A stretch of 10,631 bases of DNA, taken from IMG/VR virus record IMGVR_UViG_648276652_000022. One strand, given 5' to 3'. Shown here in pieces: positions 1-9,138 of the stretch (position 1 is the first letter of the stretch; each line of letters begins with the position of its first letter). This stretch comes from a virus (Duplodnaviria > Heunggongvirae > Uroviricota > Caudoviricetes). Position numbers and translations under genes: made by a program. The notes under the pieces are model-generated. The model was not told where the DNA came from, made no database searches, and was given only the letters and a program-made list of their open reading frames with translations.

Positions 1-1254
1 ATGCTGGAACAAATGGGCATTGCCGCGAAGCAAGCCTCGTATAAATTAGCGCAACTCTCCAGCCGCGAAAAAAATCGCGTGCTGGAAAAAATCGCCGATG
101 AACTGGAAGCACAAAGCGAAATCATCCTCAACGCTAACGCCCAGGATGTTGCTGACGCGCGTGCCAATGGCCTTGGCGAAGCGATGCTTGACCGTCTGGC
201 ACTGACGCCCGCACGGCTGAAAGGCATTGCCGATGATGTGCGCCAGGTGTGTAACCTCGCCGATCCGGTGGGGCAGGTAATCGATGGCAGCGTACTGGAC
301 AGCGGCCTGCGTCTTGAGCGTCGTCGCGTACCGCTGGGGGTTATTGGCGTGATTTATGAAGCGCGCCCGAACGTGACGGTTGATGTCGCTTCGCTGTGCC
401 TGAAAACCGGTAATGCGGTGATCCTGCGCGGTGGCAAAGAAACGTGTCGCACTAACGCTGCAACGGTGGCGGTGATTCAGGACGCCCTGAAATCCTGCGG
501 CTTACCGGCGGGTGCCGTGCAGGCGATTGATAATCCTGACCGTGCGCTGGTCAGTGAAATGCTGCGTATGGATAAATACATCGACATGCTGATCCCGCGT
601 GGTGGCGCTGGTTTGCATAAACTGTGCCGTGAACAGTCGACAATCCCGGTGATCACAGGTGGTATAGGCGTATGCCATATTTACGTTGATGAAAGTGTAG
701 AGATCGCTGAAGCATTAAAAGTGATCGTCAACGCGAAAACTCAGCGTCCGAGCACATGTAATACGGTTGAAACGTTGCTGGTGAATAAAAACATCGCCGA
801 TAGCTTCCTGCCCGCATTAAGCAAACAAATGGCGGAAAGCGGCGTGACATTACACGCAGATGCAGCTGCACTGGCGCAGTTGCAGGCAGGCCCTGCGAAG
901 GTGGTTGCTGTTAAAGCCGAAGAGTATGACGATGAGTTTCTGTCATTAGATTTGAACGTCAAAATCGTCAGCGATCTTGACGATGCCATCGCCCATATTC
1001 GTGAACACGGCACACAACACTCCGATGCGATCCTGACCCGCGATATGCGCAACGCCCAGCGTTTTGTTAACGAAGTGGATTCGTCCGCTGTTTACGTTAA
1101 CGCCTCTACGCGTTTTACCGACGGCGGCCAGTTTGGTCTGGGTGCGGAAGTGGCGGTAAGCACACAAAAACTCCACGCGCGTGGCCCAATGGGGCTGGAA
1201 GCACTGACCACTTACAAGTGGATCGGCATTGGTGATTACACCATTCGTGCGTAA
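1..1254 (+). CDS. proA: Gamma-glutamyl phosphate reductase (glutamate-5-semialdehyde dehydrogenase), full length, 417 aa
   Basis: Uninterrupted 417-aa ORF starting at ATG position 1; translation recognised as enterobacterial ProA over its full length. Followed by an imperfect inverted repeat (1259-1271 / 1304-1316) that may be its terminator. Confidence 0.95.
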
Positions 1255-1368
1255 ATAAAACCGGGTGATGCAAAAGTAGCCATTTGATTCACAAGGCCAT
1301 TGACGCATCGCCCGGTTAGTTTTAACCTTGTCCACCGTGATTCACGTTCGTGAACATGTCCTTTCAGG

Positions 1369-3516: not shown

Positions 3517-4043
3517 TTGCGTAACTCCGATAACTCGTTAAAGCGTTCCATAAACATCCCGTAGGCATGGCCCGGTGCCAGTGGAATCACGTTGAACATC
3601 TCTGTTGCCGGGATACCTTCCAGTACAGGCCAGAAAGAGCCATCATCAAGCCCGAGATCGCGGCGTTCGGTTGCCAGCATGATGAGATCGGCATATTTCA
3701 CGGGCGTACTCATAACTGGGGGTAACCCGTATTTCTCACGGATTACGGCGTCTATTTTTTCTTCCATTTGTTTATAGTCAGGAAGAAGGCGTTTCAGTGG
3801 TGCGGGAATGTCCTGGCAATACGCTTCTGTTGCATCATGCATTAACGCTTCAAAAGCAAATTCCTGCGGCACCAACTGGCTGCAAAGAACCGCATGTTGG
3901 GCGACGCTGTAGAAGTGCGAAAGATGACCGGCAAAGCGACAGATATTTGAAAGGGAAACCGCGATATCGTTAATATCGATGTCGTCTTTATTTATCCTGT
4001 CATAATAAAAATGCTTCCCGGAAAAAGTTTTAATAAATGACAT
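3507..4043 (-). CDS. yfdR: HD-domain phosphohydrolase (5'-deoxynucleotidase-like), 178 aa
   Basis: The listed ORF starts at a GTG (4070); the internal ATG at 4043 is preceded by GGAG 8 nt upstream and gives a 178-aa product MSFIKTFSGKHFYYD... with an H...HD metal-binding signature (LMHDATEAY). Recognised as YfdR-like. Confidence 0.85.
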   Translation of the reverse strand: MSFIKTFSGKHFYYDRINKDDIDINDIAVSLSNICRFAGHLSHFYSVAQHAVLCSQLVPQEFAFEALMHDATEAYCQDIPAPLKRLLPDYKQMEEKIDAVIREKYGLPPVMSTPVKYADLIMLATERRDLGLDDGSFWPVLEGIPATEMFNVIPLAPGHAYGMFMERFNELSELRKCA

Positions 4044-4137
4044 TTTGTTCTCCACGTATATGCGCTGCACCGCGCTGAATTCTGGTAAAAAGAATCCCTC
4101 ACCATCCGGCGATTATTGAGTAAATTACGTTTCCATA

Positions 4138-4158
4138 AATGCCCCCGCAGGGGCATTT
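4138..4158. other. Perfect 9-bp stem / 3-nt loop hairpin between yfdQ and yfdR
   Basis: AAATGCCCC-GCA-GGGGCATTT read directly; lies in the 127-bp gap after the yfdQ stop. No clear U-tract, so its role (processing site, attenuator, protein-binding site) is undetermined. Confidence 0.4.
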
Positions 4159-4170
4159 GCAGTAATGAAA

Positions 4171-4995
4171 TCAGGCGGTGAAAGTACCAATAAAGGTTTC
4201 TACTTTGCTGTCCTTGAATTTCTCAACAAGCAGATCACGAAATTCGTTAGCCATTTCTTCCTGCACCGCCTCCAGCTGAATAATGCGCAGAACCAGTACA
4301 GGACGATCGCCAGTGATAATACTGAGGCGTAATTTAAACGGACGTTCTTTCAGACCTTCAAACGGAACGCATTTAAATTCAAATGCCACTGGCATAATGT
4401 CTTTGGTCTTCGCTTCGACAGACTCCATCAGGGAGCGTTTGCCGCTGAAGTCATTATCTTCAAAATCAGCGGTCTGGTTTGCTTCAATCGTGATTTTACG
4501 GACAGCCGCAGCCGCTTTTGTTGCCTGAATAGCGTCACCATTAGCATCAAAGCCCACAAGATAGTCGGCCCAGTCTTCAATCCATTCTGCCAGTGACTTC
4601 TGGGAGTTACGCTCGCCGTTAACAGACAACAGAGCAGAGAACGGTGCTGTCTTTTTCAGTTTGAGTGTGGCGGTGTTATCTGCGTGACCTGGTTCATCAA
4701 TAGTACCCAGGTTAAGCACACTGACGGCACGCATATTATCAGCATCGATAAAGCAGCGGGTGCCTTCATCTGCAAGATCTTTAGAATAACGGGTAAAGTC
4801 ATCGATGCTGGCAGTGGAAAGCGCACCACGGAAACGGAAGCGATTTAAATTAAATTTTTCCAGATCATGAATGCGGAAATTCTCAGGCAATGCCACAGCA
4901 TCGGCACCAATCTTACTGATAATTTCATTAACACCCTGAGCAGAAATAAGGGCATGGATTTGATTAATTGCGGTTGCGTCTAAGTTCTGAGACAT
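4171..4995 (-). CDS. yfdQ: DUF2303-family prophage protein, 274 aa
   Basis: 274-aa [24 protein letters not shown]... with GAGGA 8 nt upstream of the ATG; recognised as YfdQ-like (CPS-53). Confidence 0.85.
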
Positions 4996-5471: not shown

Positions 5472-5560
5472 ACAAAACAGAGAAGAACACCTGCGGTGGC
5501 AGCCGCCCGGATGGATTGGGTTATGAGCCCGTCGTCCGGTGATGCTCTTCTCTGTTTTGT
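5472..5560. repeat. 15-bp perfect inverted repeat (ACAAAACAGAGAAGA / TCTTCTCTGTTTTGT) flanking a 59-bp GC-rich spacer
   Basis: Arms at 5472-5486 and 5546-5560 are exact reverse complements (checked base by base). They sit in a ~470 bp region without a convincing ORF. Confidence 0.6.
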
Positions 5561-5824
5561 AAAAAGGACGGTACCAGCCGGAAGCAAGGGTACAAACTGG
5601 TACCTCCAGGACTACACACAGCATAAAGTTGTGGTGCCGGGTGCCTCCCGGTGCCTGGCGAAGGTTGCACACCAGACGGGTGGGTATCCACAGAAGGTCG
5701 ACTGTCAGCCTCAACCTTAACCCGCGTGCGCTGAGCCGCATTCACCACAACGCTAAGGATTCTCTCTGGTTAAAAATACTTAGCTGTTATGTGCCTGCTT
5801 TTAGCCACATCAGGCGAGGTGGAC

Positions 5825-5877
5825 CTGGTTATTCCCCAACAACAAGGATTCGGTTAATCTGGTTATCCCCAACAACG
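5825..5877 (+). repeat. Two ~19-bp direct repeats CTGGTTAT(T)CCCCAACAAC immediately upstream of the 144-aa ORF
   Basis: Copies at 5825-5844 and 5859-5877 differ by one T; further CTGGTTA / CGGTTAA copies at 5766-5772 and 5851-5857. Candidate regulator-binding sites or promoter elements. Confidence 0.5.
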
Positions 5878-5891
5878 CAAAAGGAAAAGAA

Positions 5892-6326
5892 ATGTCCGGT
5901 AATATCTACACGCTGTACAAATCCCACTGTGAAAATGTTGGAAAGTATCGGGGCATTGAAATCAGTGGGGTAGTGTCATCAGTCGAAATAAGCAAAGTGG
6001 AATCAAGGGCAACATTACTTACTCTTCTGGACCTTGTCTTACATGAGCACCGGAAGAAATTCGGCACTCCCTATAATCAGTTGAATGGGAAAAAGGCTCT
6101 GGTTCACCTTATTCTGATGAAGCATCACTGGATGCCAAAACAGATTAATGAGATGAAATTTGATGAACTTCTTCTTTCAATTCAGGATGAACTCACACTT
6201 GATAAAATAAGCGTAACCGCCCAGAAATTTTTAGATTATCGAGACTGGAGATCACAAATTCATCACTTTGATGATTTTGACGAAAATGAATGGGATCCTA
6301 ATTTGTCTGCACAATATCTAAAGTAA
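5892..6326 (+). CDS. Hypothetical protein, 144 aa, AT-rich moron-like gene on the opposite strand to the surrounding early-left genes
   Basis: ATG at 5892 with AAGGA 6 nt upstream; open for 144 codons; visibly lower GC than flanking genes (by eye roughly 40% versus about 50%); acidic C-terminus (HHFDDFDENEWDPN). No family recognised. Confidence 0.7.
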   Translation: MSGNIYTLYKSHCENVGKYRGIEISGVVSSVEISKVESRATLLTLLDLVLHEHRKKFGTPYNQLNGKKALVHLILMKHHWMPKQINEMKFDELLLSIQDELTLDKISVTAQKFLDYRDWRSQIHHFDDFDENEWDPNLSAQYLK

Positions 6327-6504
6327 CATCCTGTGATAAAACCGTGATTTCCTGATCCAGTTTTTTTAAGGAGTCTATTGTTTCCTGTCGATAAGACAGC
6401 ACTTCACGAAGCTGGTTTATAGCTGCCAGCTTCTTTGCCATCCACTCGTAAATTTCCTCATTTGTGTATCCGGGCGCGACGATTTTGGGTTCTGTTTTGT
6501 GCAT
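6298..6504 (-). CDS. Hypothetical small protein, 68 aa, first gene downstream of pL
   Basis: The listed 73-aa ORF starts at TTG (6519), but TTGAGGAGG is better read as the Shine-Dalgarno GAGGAGG, 6 nt upstream of the ATG at 6504 (MHKTEPKIVAPGYTNEEIYEWMAKKLAAINQLREV...). Heptad-like, probably helical. Its 3' end overlaps the 144-aa ORF convergently by 29 bp. Confidence 0.65.
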   Translation of the reverse strand: MHKTEPKIVAPGYTNEEIYEWMAKKLAAINQLREVLSYRQETIDSLKKLDQEITVLSQDVTLDIVQTN

Positions 6505-6549
6505 TTCACACCTCCTCAAGTTATCAGTTACTTGTTGATGGGGACCAGA

Positions 6550-6561
6550 TTGTTAAAGAGC
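6550..6561 (-). promoter_or_regulatory. boxA-like antitermination element (GCTCTTTAACAA) in the pL leader
   Basis: Minus-strand reading of 6561..6550 is GCTCTTTAACAA, matching the E. coli rrn boxA consensus TGCTCTTTAACAA at 12 of 12 shared positions. A stem-loop lies 3 nt 5' of it on the same RNA, the rrn-style boxB-boxA order. Confidence 0.45.
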
Positions 6562-6562
6562 T

Positions 6563-6586
6563 AAGCGTCCTGTAGGGCGCTTTTTT
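6563..6586 (+). terminator. Rho-independent terminator on the + strand (GCGTCC-TGTA-GGGCGC followed by TTTTTT)
   Basis: 6-bp stem (one G-U pair) at 6565-6570 / 6575-6580, then a T-run at 6581-6586. The same hairpin on the minus-strand RNA is the structure upstream of the boxA-like element. Confidence 0.55.
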
Positions 6587-6671
6587 GTTGCTAACGAATC
6601 ACCCTAGACTTTATATGCCCCAGGCGGCTACTTCGTGGGCGTCCTGCCTGTTCGTTGTTTCTCTTGGGTAC

Positions 6672-6699
6672 ATTATGTATCTCATGGGTACATTGTCAA
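6672..6699 (-). promoter_or_regulatory. Leftward early promoter pL (TTGACA-16 bp-CATAAT) with embedded operator TGTACCCATGAGATACA
   Basis: On the minus strand: consensus -35 TTGACA (plus 6694-6699), 16-bp spacer, -10 CATAAT (plus 6672-6677). The 17-mer at 6676-6692 fits the T-GTAY-N7-GTAC-A dyad pattern also found at OR. Confidence 0.55.
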
Positions 6700-6700
6700 G

Positions 6701-6726
6701 TATAAAAAAACCTGCCGAAGCAGGTT
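6701..6726 (-). terminator. Rho-independent terminator downstream of the repressor gene (UUCG-loop hairpin followed by U-run)
   Basis: Minus-strand RNA: AACCUGC-UUCG-GCAGGUU followed by a run of U (plus-strand A-run 6704-6710), beginning 12 nt after the cI stop. Confidence 0.55.
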
Positions 6727-6738
6727 CATAAACATTGA

Positions 6739-7413
6739 TTAGGCTTTGATTTTGTATCTTCTTGGTTTTCCTGAGAAAATCACAGTTCCAATTATAGAGC
6801 AATTACCGTTGATCTTAATGTAAGGCTCAGGCCAGTTTGGGTTTAACGCTTTGAGATAACGCTGTGTCCCATCTTCTATCAACCTTTTGAAGGTGGTTTC
6901 ACCTGTATCGTGCATCAATGCAATAACGTCGTCACCGTGGCAGGCTGGTACTTCAGGATCGACAAAAATCATGTCTCCCGGGCGGTACTCATCAATCATT
7001 GAATCACCTATCACCCGCAAGATATAAGTCATTTCCCCACAGGGTACAGGGCAGGGATACGTTTCTGCTGTGCTCAAATCAACCTCAGAATATCCAACTT
7101 CTTTCCATGCTCCGGCCTGTACCCATGATATGACAGGGACTAATGTGATTTGTTTATTAGTGATTGAAACATCAGGTTTTTTTGTGATGTTCGTTGTCTG
7201 GTGTTCTTGATCGAGCCATCCAACAGGCAGGTCGAAACATTTTTCGATGTGTCGTGCCATGCTGTCACCGATATTTTTAGTAGCACCATCTCCCATAAAC
7301 CTGCTGGTCTGGGTTGGCTCGCGATCAATCATAGTGGCAAAGGAAGAATTCCCGCCAACACCATCTCTCAGTTTTCTGGCGTTAGACCGCCGGATGTCAT
7401 GGATTGTTTTCAT
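6739..7413 (-). CDS. CI-like prophage repressor (N-terminal HTH plus C-terminal S24 LexA-type peptidase domain), 224 aa
   Basis: 224-aa ORF with a GDSM serine motif and downstream KRL lysine typical of S24 autopeptidases; divergent from a Cro-like gene across an operator-bearing intergenic region. Appears leaderless (the -10-like TTTAAT lies directly upstream of the ATG). Confidence 0.88.
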   Translation of the reverse strand: MKTIHDIRRSNARKLRDGVGGNSSFATMIDREPTQTSRFMGDGATKNIGDSMARHIEKCFDLPVGWLDQEHQTTNITKKPDVSITNKQITLVPVISWVQAGAWKEVGYSEVDLSTAETYPCPVPCGEMTYILRVIGDSMIDEYRPGDMIFVDPEVPACHGDDVIALMHDTGETTFKRLIEDGTQRYLKALNPNWPEPYIKINGNCSIIGTVIFSGKPRRYKIKA

Positions 7414-7428
7414 AACGAAATTAAAACC

Positions 7429-7449
7429 CTTGTACCGTTAAGGTACAAG
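7429..7449. promoter_or_regulatory. Operator OR-a: 21-bp perfect palindrome CTTGTACC-GTTAA-GGTACAAG, overlapping the putative PRM spacer
   Basis: Perfect dyad read directly; core 17-mer TGTACCGTTAAGGTACA at 7431-7447. Confidence 0.6.
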
Positions 7450-7453
7450 TATC

Positions 7454-7497
7454 TTGAAGGTTCATTTTAATCATGTAATATGTACACCGGAGGTACA
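7454..7497 (+). promoter_or_regulatory. Rightward early promoter PR (TTGAAG-16 bp-TAATAT) with operator OR-b TGTACACCGGAGGTACA at 7481-7497
   Basis: -35 at 7454-7459, -10 at 7476-7481; the 17-bp dyad, with the same GTAC spacing as OR-a, overlaps the -10 and start region. Confidence 0.55.
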
Positions 7498-7503
7498 TAT
7501 TGT

Positions 7504-7704
7504 ATGAAAGCGTATTGGGACTCTTTAACCAAAGAACAGCAGGGCGAGTTGGCCGGAAAAGTTGGCTCAACACCTGGCTACTTACGGCTGGTTTTCAATG
7601 GCTATAAAAAAGCCAGTTTTGTGCTGGCTAAAAAACTTGAGCAATGCACGTCAGGTGCAATTACGAAATCTGACTTAAGACCGGATATCTATCCGAAAGA
7701 TTAG
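7504..7704 (+). CDS. Cro-like / YdaS-family HTH regulator, 66 aa
   Basis: Listed ORF starts at 7480, but GGAGG at 7488-7492 precedes the ATG at 7504 (MKAYWDSLTKEQQGELAGKVGSTPGYLRLV...). Small HTH-like protein divergent from cI, with a C-terminal LRPDI motif as in YdaS-type proteins. Confidence 0.7.
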   Translation: MKAYWDSLTKEQQGELAGKVGSTPGYLRLVFNGYKKASFVLAKKLEQCTSGAITKSDLRPDIYPKD

Positions 7705-7735
7705 CAGAACACTTTCAATTTTTAACCACAGAACG

Positions 7736-8305
7736 ATGAGGCTAACCGTGGGTAAGCATCACTGGAAAGTAGAAAAACAGCCTGAGTGGTACGTGAAAGC
7801 TGTCAGAAAAACTATCGCAAAGTTGCCGGGTGGTTACGCTGAAGCAGCTGACTGGCTGGATGTAACAGAGAACGCATTATTTAACCGCCTTCGTGCCGAT
7901 GGCGATCAGATTTTCCCGCTGGGATGGGCAATGATTTTGCAACGTGCTGGTGGAACTCACTTCATTGCTGACGCTGTGGCGCAGTCTGCAAATGGCGTCT
8001 TTGTGTCTCTTCCTGACGTCGAGGATGTGGACAACGCCGATATTAACCAGCGTCTGCTGGAAGTCATTGAACAGATCGGCAGTTATTCAAAACAGATTCG
8101 TTCAGCAATCGAAGACGGTGTAGTGGAACCGCATGAGAAGACAGCAATTAACGACGAGCTGTATCTCTCAATTTCGAAGCTGCAGGAGCATGCAGCACTG
8201 GTCTACAAAATCTTTTGCATTTCAGAAAGTAATGACGCCCGCGAGTGTGCAGCTCCGGGCGTCGTGGCGTCGATTGCTTCTGGTTGTGGAGAAACTAACG
8301 CATGA
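7736..8305 (+). CDS. Prophage regulatory protein, CII-like (CP76/YdaT-like family), 189 aa
   Basis: 189-aa ORF directly after the Cro-like gene. Family assignment is from recognition only. No Shine-Dalgarno before the ATG at 7736; the GTG at 7748 with GAGG 6 nt upstream is an alternative start. Confidence 0.55.
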   Translation: MRLTVGKHHWKVEKQPEWYVKAVRKTIAKLPGGYAEAADWLDVTENALFNRLRADGDQIFPLGWAMILQRAGGTHFIADAVAQSANGVFVSLPDVEDVDNADINQRLLEVIEQIGSYSKQIRSAIEDGVVEPHEKTAINDELYLSISKLQEHAALVYKIFCISESNDARECAAPGVVASIASGCGETNA

Positions 8306-9138
8306 ACAGTTTAACGGCAAATAACCGTTTGTCGCAACAGCTGGTGGTCAGCGTCGCTGAACACGTGTTGTTACGGCATGAATGCAGATTACCAAATCTC
8401 CTGGCTGTAAGTAACCACAGAGAACTTTACCTGACTGTGGGGGGCGAGTTGTGCAGGAACTTAACCGCTGGTTTCGTGACGGAAGAGGACTTTATGTTCA
8501 TGTTATTCGTTGGGAGCCAGAAACACAGCGCGTTATCTATCTTCGCAAAGACTACCCGCATGAGTGCTTTAGCCCTTTGTGGAAATTCAGGCGTGATTTT
8601 GTTGAGTGTGAAGGACCACCAGCACATTGATTCTGCCATTCCGGGACGTTACACTGTTCAGGCACCTTATAAAGCGGGTGCCGGGATTGGCGTCCTGGAA
8701 TTGATCAAGGCGATATATGACGCGCCAGCGTCTTTTTTATCGTCCGCATTTGCTCACATCAAAGTTATGGTGGGCTGGGCGGGGGCATCGAAAGATGCGC
8801 CGGTTTCCTTGATCACCGGTTACGCCAACCCCGTTCAGTTCACCACCAGCGAAATTGGCGTTTCCGGTGGTGGAAGTATTTCACCGATCAAGGAGGCTGC
8901 CATCATGGCTACTGTCCCAGCCCTCACTCGTCTGAATGATGAAGACTTACATAAACTCAGTTATGTAACAACTGCACTACGTGCTCTGCGCAAGGTAACT
9001 CTTTCGGATCCGCAGGCACATCAGGTTCTGGTAGAAACCCTTCTTAACTTGCAAGCTGAACGTATTCGTCTGGCGGATAAGGCTAATTTTCATATTCACC
9101 GTCTCCTGAATATCAGCGGAGGGCATCGTCATGCTTAA
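8302..9138 (+). CDS. Hypothetical protein (278-aa frame); the 5' part may be over-called, the 3' part (about 8631-9138) looks like genuine coding
   Basis: Continuous 278-codon frame with an ATGA overlap to the upstream gene. From about 8631 the codons look like typical E. coli coding sequence (GCG, GGC, GAA, ATC, AAA). An internal ATG at 8905 is preceded by AAGGAGG 8 nt upstream. Conflicts with a well-formed small ORF in another frame (8451-8630). Confidence 0.35.
   Translation: MNSLTANNRLSQQLVVSVAEHVLLRHECRLPNLLAVSNHRELYLTVGGELCRNLTAGFVTEEDFMFMLFVGSQKHSALSIFAKTTRMSALALCGNSGVILLSVKDHQHIDSAIPGRYTVQAPYKAGAGIGVLELIKAIYDAPASFLSSAFAHIKVMVGWAGASKDAPVSLITGYANPVQFTTSEIGVSGGGSISPIKEAAIMATVPALTRLNDEDLHKLSYVTTALRALRKVTLSDPQAHQVLVETLLNLQAERIRLADKANFHIHRLLNISGGHRHA
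8451..8630 (+). CDS. Small phage protein, DUF4222-like pattern, 59 aa, GTG start, in a different frame from the 278-aa ORF
   Basis: Hand translation: VQELNRWFRDGRGLYVHVIRWEPETQRVIYLRKDYPHECFSPLWKFRRDFVECEGPPAH, stop TGA at 8628-8630. It fits the small phage-protein pattern D.RG..V.V......RV.Y.R..Y..EC..P...F...F as I recall it. Absent from the ORF track (under 60 aa, GTG start). Confidence 0.4.
   Translation: MQELNRWFRDGRGLYVHVIRWEPETQRVIYLRKDYPHECFSPLWKFRRDFVECEGPPAH

Follow-up and report, generated by a model that had tools for sequence, protein, structure and literature searches.

The pL leader of an SfIV-type prophage, contained in a 10,631-nt stretch of viral DNA (hereafter the window), holds two separate elements on opposite strands within 37 nt (6550-6586): an exact rrn-type boxA on the pL transcript, and a hairpin facing it from the other strand. 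The reading that we favor, with a probability of about 0.5 on comparative sequence evidence, is that the boxA would be an N-independent, NusB/E-recruiting anti-Rho device for pL RNA crossing some 870 untranslated nt, while the hairpin would be an opposing terminator. The occurrence of an rrn-type boxA in an N-less early leader, combined with comparative sense-strand data, makes host-Nus-dependent and N-independent action the leading explanation. An earlier note on this DNA had proposed host-Nus-dependent antitermination by an rrn-like or put-like RNA mechanism, or else a new small antiterminator; the host-Nus component of that proposal now leads in its N-independent form, whereas a boxB-boxA unit and a small protein find no place in it.

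The window runs from proA through a tRNA gene (1369-1441) into a lambdoid prophage of the SfIV type at thrW, which is 99.9% identical to Shigella phage SfIV across 6250-7750. The orientation of the cI-like gene, on the minus strand, fixes that of the early-left operon. The features of the immunity region and of the leader are as follows.

7736-8305, plus strand: CII/YmfL-like gene of the immunity region.
7504-7704, plus strand: cro-like gene of the immunity region.
6739-7413, minus strand: gene of a 224-aa cI-like repressor, carrying the annotation cI in SfIV and SfV.
6708-6727, minus strand: terminator-like hairpin with a U-run 3' of cI, annotated as a terminator in SfV.
6672-6699, minus strand: predicted pL promoter, TTGACA-16-CATAAT, matching the consensus at 11 of 12 positions.
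6591-6656, minus strand: conserved 66-nt leader RNA with closing helix P1, short hairpin P2 and hairpin P3; the true 5' part of the pL transcript.
6563-6588, plus strand: predicted intrinsic terminator, stem AAGCGTCC/GGGCGCTT followed by a T-run, its core being the hairpin at 6565-6580.
6550-6561, minus strand: boxA GCUCUUUAACAA, an exact rrn-type consensus and candidate NusB-NusE binding site on the pL RNA.
6531-6551, minus strand: C/A-rich extension AAUCUGGUCCCCAUCAACAAG, semi-conserved 3' of boxA; the right inverted-repeat arm around a two-gene cassette.

On the pR side of the immunity region, matches above the Rfam gathering score were obtained on the plus strand for isrK (8662-8738, 64 bits) and C4 antisense RNA (8763-8850, 82 bits), along with a weak match to the c4-a1b1 target in the 8649-8850 region of the same strand. 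All three fall within an annotated 278-aa 'immunity region'/Ash-family ORF (8302-9138), which may be an over-annotation, and the isrK/C4 region resembles an immI-like RNA module of the P1/P7 type within the pR operon.

We take the TTGACA-16-CATAAT promoter as pL, with a predicted start near 6665; two 19-nt operator-like repeats (6656-6694) overlap it. The minus strand from 6586 to 6550 reads AAAAAA-GCGCCC-UACA-GGACGC-UUA-GCUCUUUAACAA, confirming the letters of the earlier note: A6 at 6586-6581, the hairpin at 6580-6565, UUA, and boxA at 6561-6550. Counted from the predicted start, the hairpin occupies roughly +85 to +100 and the boxA roughly +105 to +116. The hairpin had been thought to begin the pL transcript; it lies about 85-100 nt past the predicted start, and the structure at 6591-6656 comes first. 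The leader module has a mosaic make-up: similarity to SfV covers pL and the leader no farther than 6593, SfV lacking both hairpin and boxA, and PhiR29_1 shares the leader to 6529, keeping hairpin and boxA and lacking the 68-aa gene that follows in the window.

The two strands of the hairpin differ in their folding. On the plus strand it forms a perfect 8-bp stem (one G.U pair) with a 4-nt loop followed by T6, at -11.5 kcal/mol; on the pL strand the stem contains a C.A mismatch and reaches -7.5 kcal/mol (z = -2.6). The same asymmetry recurs among natural hairpin variants found beside boxA, where the plus-strand fold is the more stable in 17 of 18 (mean -7.8 vs -4.05 kcal/mol), with changes such as GGACGC to GAACGC retaining a G.U pair on the plus strand and creating a C.A mismatch on the pL strand. 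In PhiR29_1 the stop codon of the convergent plus-strand gene lies 41 nt before the hairpin, and in the SfIV-type window the terminator stands 237 nt past the 144-aa plus-strand ORF. The plus strand therefore presents what defines an intrinsic terminator, a G+C-rich stem-loop with an immediate U-run and a gene upstream. Because 17 of the 18 variants favor the plus strand, a T-run follows and a gene ends just before it in PhiR29_1, the hairpin with its T-run is, as read from sequence, a terminator for convergent plus-strand transcription, opposed to pL, and not a boxB. In the window the transcription that it ends derives from the 144-aa gene at 5892-6326. The suggestion that the hairpin doubles as a plus-strand terminator is thus confirmed by the T6 run and the stronger plus-strand fold. 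The proposed rrn order, boxB-like then boxA, fails: the hairpin does lie 3 nt upstream of boxA, as an rrn-type boxB might, but its variants keep their pairing on the opposite strand.

The boxA itself matches GYUCUUUAANA at 11 of 11 positions and the rrn form at 12 of 12. It is the sole perfect match in the window (6561 to 6550) to GYTCTTTAANA, the gamma-proteobacterial consensus derived by Baniulyte et al. 2017 (PMC5725501), and the chance expectation for the exact 12-mer in 10.6 kb, counting both strands, is estimated at about 0.001. It is placed on the transcribed strand, about 105 nt past the predicted, operator-overlapped pL, and ends 32 nt before the Shine-Dalgarno sequence GAGGAGG of the 68-aa ORF. 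Its predicted openness is a mean P(unpaired) of 0.59-0.67, with the eight 3' nucleotides open and the 5' GCUC partly paired. This exact rrn match in an N-less early leader agrees with the earlier assignment to the ribosomal rather than the lambda nut form. On its 3' side, a search for a boxB gave a single weak candidate, a stem of 5 bp closing a loop of 8 nt (-3.4 kcal/mol, z about 0), in sequence that varies across contexts. BoxC is a G/U-rich element downstream of boxA; nothing like it follows here, the downstream sequence being C/A-rich, UCUGGUCCCCAUCAACAAG.

A matching element downstream of PR, which the earlier note advised looking for, was sought and not found: the window contains neither a second consensus boxA downstream of pR that could serve as a nutR partner nor, by covariance model R1 (described below), a second copy of the 66-nt motif on the pR side. 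The CTCTTTAAC core in cro (7520-7531), to which that note had also drawn attention, has two mismatches, both at consensus positions, and lies in translated sequence; with three boxA-like matches of two mismatches or fewer observed against 1.13 expected, it is within chance. No match to the N family was returned by PHROGs or Pfam for the 10 proteins of the window, and none is an Arg-rich candidate, in keeping with the claim of no recognisable N-like protein. The SfIV genome paper likewise describes SfII, SfIV and SfV as being without N, cII and cIII.

Conservation of the boxA was examined with anchors that exclude it, namely the hairpin and the upstream 66-nt motif. Of 99 distinct downstream sequences, in a sample that other searches had partly enriched, 31 had the boxA at a constant spacing. 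Among sequences not selected on boxA, the mean entropy of positions 1-11 was 0.15 bit, compared with 0.62 for the preceding 3 nt and 1.34 for the next 17 nt, making boxA the least variable block of the module across about 20 different downstream contexts. It is kept beside all 18 hairpin variants and beside about 20 unrelated downstream sequences; its commonest variant, GCUCUUUAAAAA (C10 to A), alters a free position of the consensus, and a distant variant of the motif (L171) has CGCUCUUUAAAAA with the hairpin absent. The conservation test set by the earlier note comes out mixed: wherever the hairpin module occurs the 12-mer hardly varies, and SfV, the closest immunity relative, is without it.

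The element also recurs outside this module. A 17-mer consisting of boxA and UCUGG, GCTCTTTAACAATCTGG, was also found in many viral contigs without the 66-nt motif, and the fetched loci amount to 43 distinct upstream contexts; this multi-context evidence comes from exact-match searches, and about 7 chance 17-mer hits are estimated for such a collection. Within 200 nt upstream, a sigma-70 promoter scoring at least 10/12 was present on the same strand in 18 of the 43 contexts and on the antisense strand in one. T7 carries the identical 17-mer, GCUCUUUAACAAUCUGG, in its early leader, about 65 nt past promoter A3, and our literature search found no functional study of that boxA. In some contexts boxA follows different sense-strand hairpins.

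Three of the 17-mer loci had arrangements of their own. L298 (about 1150-1330, plus strand) and L315 have a put/boxA hybrid leader: 4 nt past a put stem I of the HK022 type, GUCGAACGGCGCGACUUUAAACCAUGCGUCGG, which differs from that of HK022 by a compensatory change, the boxA 17-mer stands in place of put stem II. In L255 (about 7142, minus strand) the 17-mer lies 6 nt past the stop codon of a cro-like gene, with a long hairpin and a cII-like gene next, a nutR-like placement.

Of 5426 complete E. coli genomes, 756 have the hairpin-boxA module, in every case unannotated. Most copies are more than 95% identical, and since most boxA-bearing leaders are closely related, part of the conservation reflects shared ancestry. 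A 14-mer scan of genome contigs returned nearly all chance matches, the real ones being limited to Kosakonia, Leclercia and a single E. coli/Shigella-type locus. SfV, SfII and ST64B have the promoter-proximal motif and long untranslated leaders without the boxA, which makes boxA an accessory, dispensable for this phage type. In the 1.2 kb that follow, opposite-strand coding was higher after boxA-bearing leaders (median 0.37) than after those without boxA (0.20; Mann-Whitney p = 1e-4), a comparison based on crude ORF calls and non-independent sequences, and SfII has a small reverse gene without boxA. The longest untranslated gap did not differ (724 nt with boxA, 690 nt without), so that boxA is not simply tied to longer leaders. 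Given its low variability, its recurrence in many contexts and its association with sense-strand promoters, boxA is probably a functional sense-strand RNA element, and stand-alone boxAs in phage early leaders probably form a recurrent, largely unstudied class.

Downstream of the boxA, the pL transcript enters a two-gene cassette and then a long region without same-strand coding, with the following features.

6298-6504, minus strand: 68-aa ORF, the first pL gene, with ATG at 6504 and SD GAGGAGG at 6517-6511; a member of phrog_1744, a family of unassigned function.
5892-6326, plus strand: convergent 144-aa gene, phrog_5286, which pL transcripts cross in antisense.
5822-5875, plus strand: two direct copies of CTGGTTAT(T)CCCCAACAAC in the 5' UTR of the plus-strand gene; the left inverted-repeat arms.
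5559-5781, minus strand: STnc100/PasD-family-like noncoding element (38.4 bits, below the gathering score of 47).
4125-4152, minus strand: hairpin AAAUGCCCC-UGCG-GGGGCAUUU with a U-rich tail, between the DUF2303 (YfdQ-like) and HD-phosphatase genes.

The two cassette genes are convergent and overlap by 29 nt, and Pfam and PADLOC searches of both gave no hits. The SfIV genome paper drew attention to the 144-aa gene, orf-36 of SfIV, and to its neighbor orf-35 as unique. Phage Kati has an annotation for the 68-aa ORF, which is unannotated in SfIV and absent from SfV and PhiR29_1. The ORF encodes only two Arg and its sole family match is phrog_1744, consistent with the earlier statement that the first pL gene lacks the Arg-rich motif of N proteins. 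The companion idea that this protein is a new antiterminator is countered by PhiR29_1 and about 20 other contexts, which keep leader, hairpin and boxA without the gene. We rejected it as an N-like protein or antiterminator on the grounds of no family beyond phrog_1744, no defence-system match and absence from leader-bearing phages. Imperfect inverted repeats of about 20 nt, AATCTGGTTATCCCCAACAA (5822-5875, plus strand) and TTGTTGATGGGGACCAGATT (6531-6551, minus strand), flank the cassette, and in PhiR29_1 the same repeats surround a different plus-strand gene. Either transcript could undergo 5'-3' pairing through them, or they would be marks of cassette-exchange joints.

Past the stop of the 68-aa ORF (6298), the pL RNA is untranslated for 868 nt. 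This stretch begins as RNA antisense to the 144-aa gene, where one 78-nt segment has 24 C and 9 G, and continues through the STnc100-like element, which ends in a terminator-like hairpin of -18.5 kcal/mol with U5 (5607 to 5560) in the path of pL. The region is conserved in SfV, SfII, PhiR29_1, Ayreon and ST64B. STnc100 is a prophage sRNA family recently linked to PasD (bioRxiv 10.64898/2026.05.13.724894). Farther along, a weak second STnc100-like match (4000-4179) overlaps the 4125-4152 hairpin, and the record of Ayreon has a terminator annotated between the homologous DUF2303 and HD-phosphatase genes.

The 5' part of the leader consists of a second conserved element. An alignment (A1) of 52 non-redundant sequences, taken from promoters of many immunity types, showed compensatory change in 10 of the 15 pairs of the 66-nt structure at 6591-6656. 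Paired cells reached 97%, compared with 79.5% in shuffles, and double-sided changes 123 compared with 30, values attained by none of 500 shuffles; controls with a slid register fell to 22-41% paired. The three-way junction CACGAAGUAGCC is near-invariant, part of this invariance coming from the search pattern used for collection. An Rfam scan of the entire window (E<=1) gave no match at 6550-6656. Covariance model R1 scores 82.6 bits at 6591-6656 and finds one copy per phage locus, and 28% of complete E. coli genomes (1517 of 5426) have the motif. It occurs, unannotated, in SfII, SfV, SfIV, ST64B, SEN34, SPN3UB, mEp237 and mEp460, as well as in phiNP, Kp4866-6, YeP1-3, AH07 and ZF40; in ST64B it heads a noncoding leader of about 630 nt from which boxA is absent. 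It is more likely this motif than the boxA that would carry the general leader function of the N-less group.

The put-like RNA idea of the earlier note holds insofar as a structured leader RNA exists; that RNA is located upstream, at 6591-6656, and is not detectable as a member of the put family. Like HK022 putL/putR and the put-like RNA of HK639, the motif (not the boxA) is a structured RNA of about 66-70 nt within about 10 nt of the pL start of an N-less lambdoid phage. In contrast to put, which has two stems, no closing helix and a conserved GUCGAACGGCGCGAC...CAUGCGUCGG, the motif has a closing helix and two hairpins. The put RNAs are further defined by antitermination that is independent of factors and acts through the zinc-binding domain of RNAP beta'. 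Membership in the put family was rejected because model R1 misses HK022 putL, putR and the annotated 'putL-like antiterminator RNA' of HK639, which is clearly of the HK022 type, and because the architecture differs. The strings ACGAAC..GGC and GGAUGA, common to put and the motif, were also set aside, being located in covarying helices of the latter. A put-like role for the motif would thus be an analogy from position. The HK639 record (L439, 37910-37969, plus strand) has, in addition to the putL-like RNA, an annotated 'M3-like RNA' downstream of a CII-like gene.

Among known antitermination systems, the lambda and P22 nut sites resemble the present leader in having a boxA in the pL leader of a lambdoid phage; unlike them, the window has no boxB after boxA, no cognate N protein and no nutR past cro, the elements that define a lambda-type nut site. 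The nut boxAs of P22 and phage 21 are also close to the rrn form. The rrn leader (boxB-boxA-boxC, acting with NusA/B/E/G, SuhB and S4) shares the identical core GCUCUUUAACAA(U), a promoter-proximal position, long untranslated stretches in the transcript and a presumed independence from any phage protein; it differs in that the phage hairpin is selected on the opposite strand, boxC is absent and the transcript is a prophage mRNA operon rather than rRNA. NusB:NusE binds rrnG BoxA at 5-8 nM, compared with 80-90 nM for the lambda nut BoxA (PMC2800207). The closest mechanistic precedent comes from Salmonella CRISPR arrays, whose long untranslated RNA is kept from Rho termination by boxA alone (Stringer et al. 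2020, PMC7665894). There too a stand-alone leader boxA is independent of N and boxB; unlike those arrays, the RNA that would be protected here is a phage early operon crossing a reverse cassette and an sRNA-like region. The T7 leader is alike in that an N-less phage carries the 17-mer near an early promoter of host RNAP, and unlike in that T7 is a virulent podovirus with no adjacent terminator or motif and with same-strand genes next. In the suhB 5' UTR, too, an mRNA carries a consensus boxA near an SD, at 6 nt as against a few tens of nt in the phage leader (Baniulyte et al. 2017, PMC5725501); the suhB boxA represses and autoregulates a Nus factor, whereas many of the phage contexts have no gene directly downstream.

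That last system provides the model for an alternative in which boxA recruits Nus factors in order to repress: a loop between boxA and RNA polymerase would block translation of the first gene and expose the RNA to Rho, attenuating the cassette or pL. The suhB BoxA does repress translation and promote Rho termination, simple steric occlusion does not explain this repression (2-100 bp insertions between BoxA and SD), and 407 putative boxAs within 50 bp of start codons have been taken as candidate regulators (PMC5725501). Autoregulation of lambda N through nutL is a further precedent, and the boxA in the window is within 32 nt of GAGGAGG. We nevertheless regard repression as unlikely, given that PhiR29_1 and many other contexts have a convergent gene and no same-strand gene after boxA, and that T7-type and promoter-proximal contexts head multi-gene early operons. 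Equally improbable in our view is that the 12-mer has no RNA function and is a passenger, like boxA through a functional ancestor or by chance, in a linker of about 60 bp (terminator, boxA and repeat arm) at a cassette-exchange hotspot. The mosaic joints do fall exactly at the linker edges (SfV at 6593, PhiR29_1 at 6529), the inverted repeats flank the cassette, SfV, SfII and ST64B are viable without the 12-mer, and most copies are nearly identical; yet the 12-mer is less variable than both of its flanks, the terminator stem included, its sense-strand promoter association is 18:1 over the 43 contexts, and it is present in phages as unrelated as T7.

The remaining alternatives retain an antitermination role and assign it to other parts. 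The model of the earlier note, in which hairpin and boxA form one RNA element on the pL transcript, either an rrn-like boxB-boxA unit or a bidirectional signal, could draw on T7 and several other unrelated leaders, in which a hairpin precedes the boxA by 2-25 nt (GCCGGA...UCCGGC in L235-type contexts and CUGC-UUCG-GCAG in L236), and on the pL-sense hairpin, which still folds. We consider it quite unlikely, however, as the natural variants preserve plus-strand pairing only, the A6/T6 run is needed solely by the plus-strand terminator and no G/U-rich boxC-like sequence comes next; moreover, rrn boxB is dispensable for antitermination. A nut-type site serving an unrecognised phage antiterminator, encoded inside or outside the window and acting through boxA together with either the upstream motif or a hairpin farther downstream, appears very unlikely. 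N proteins are short and very diverse, the L255 17-mer occupies a nutR-like position with a long hairpin next, and in mEpimmI phages an N-like Gp17 works with nut sites that are unusual (PMC11893012). Against such a site, the window proteins include no N-family or Arg-rich candidate and the SfIV paper reports none, the sole downstream hairpin is weak and not conserved between contexts, and the first gene past boxA differs among phages.

From the observed sequences, strand asymmetry, conservation, promoter association and layout, we infer Nus binding, an anti-Rho effect and any role of the 66-nt motif, and under the N-independent host-Nus reading the leader would operate as follows. The terminator formed by the hairpin and the A6 run would stop convergent transcription from the cassette before it reaches OL/pL and runs antisense into cI. 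When pL fires, NusB-NusE(S10) would bind boxA as it emerges, and NusA, NusG and SuhB would join to build a complex of the rrn/CRISPR-leader type on RNA polymerase. This complex would shield the pL RNA from Rho across about 870 nt, first antisense to the 144-aa gene and then through the STnc100-like region, up to the next pL gene, with neither an N protein nor a boxB taking part. The boxA would be an accessory that travels with reverse-oriented cassettes. Counting against an anti-Rho reading, the pL operon also contains intrinsic-terminator-like hairpins (5607 to 5560; about 4152 to 4125), and boxA/Nus complexes are thought to handle intrinsic terminators poorly.

N-less lambdoid phages such as SfII, SfIV and SfV must somehow express long early-left operons in which terminator-like hairpins and untranslated stretches occur. 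One tentative answer is that SfV/SfIV/ST64B-type phages have in their pL leader a composite processivity device that needs no protein. In it the 66-nt three-way junction, as a new class of cis-acting RNA unrelated to put in sequence and architecture, would carry transcription through hundreds of untranslated nucleotides and terminator hairpins, and an optional stand-alone boxA would add host-Nus anti-Rho protection with reverse cassettes, together replacing N in a large group of enterobacterial temperate phages found in more than a quarter of E. coli genomes. If the favored reading is true, a stand-alone, high-affinity leader boxA extends N-independent Nus antitermination, known from rRNA and CRISPR arrays, to phage early operons, and suggests a rule whereby a cassette inserted against an operon brings its own terminator together with a boxA for the host operon. 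The unannotated 66-nt motif, for its part, is a candidate for a second kind of phage antiterminator RNA.
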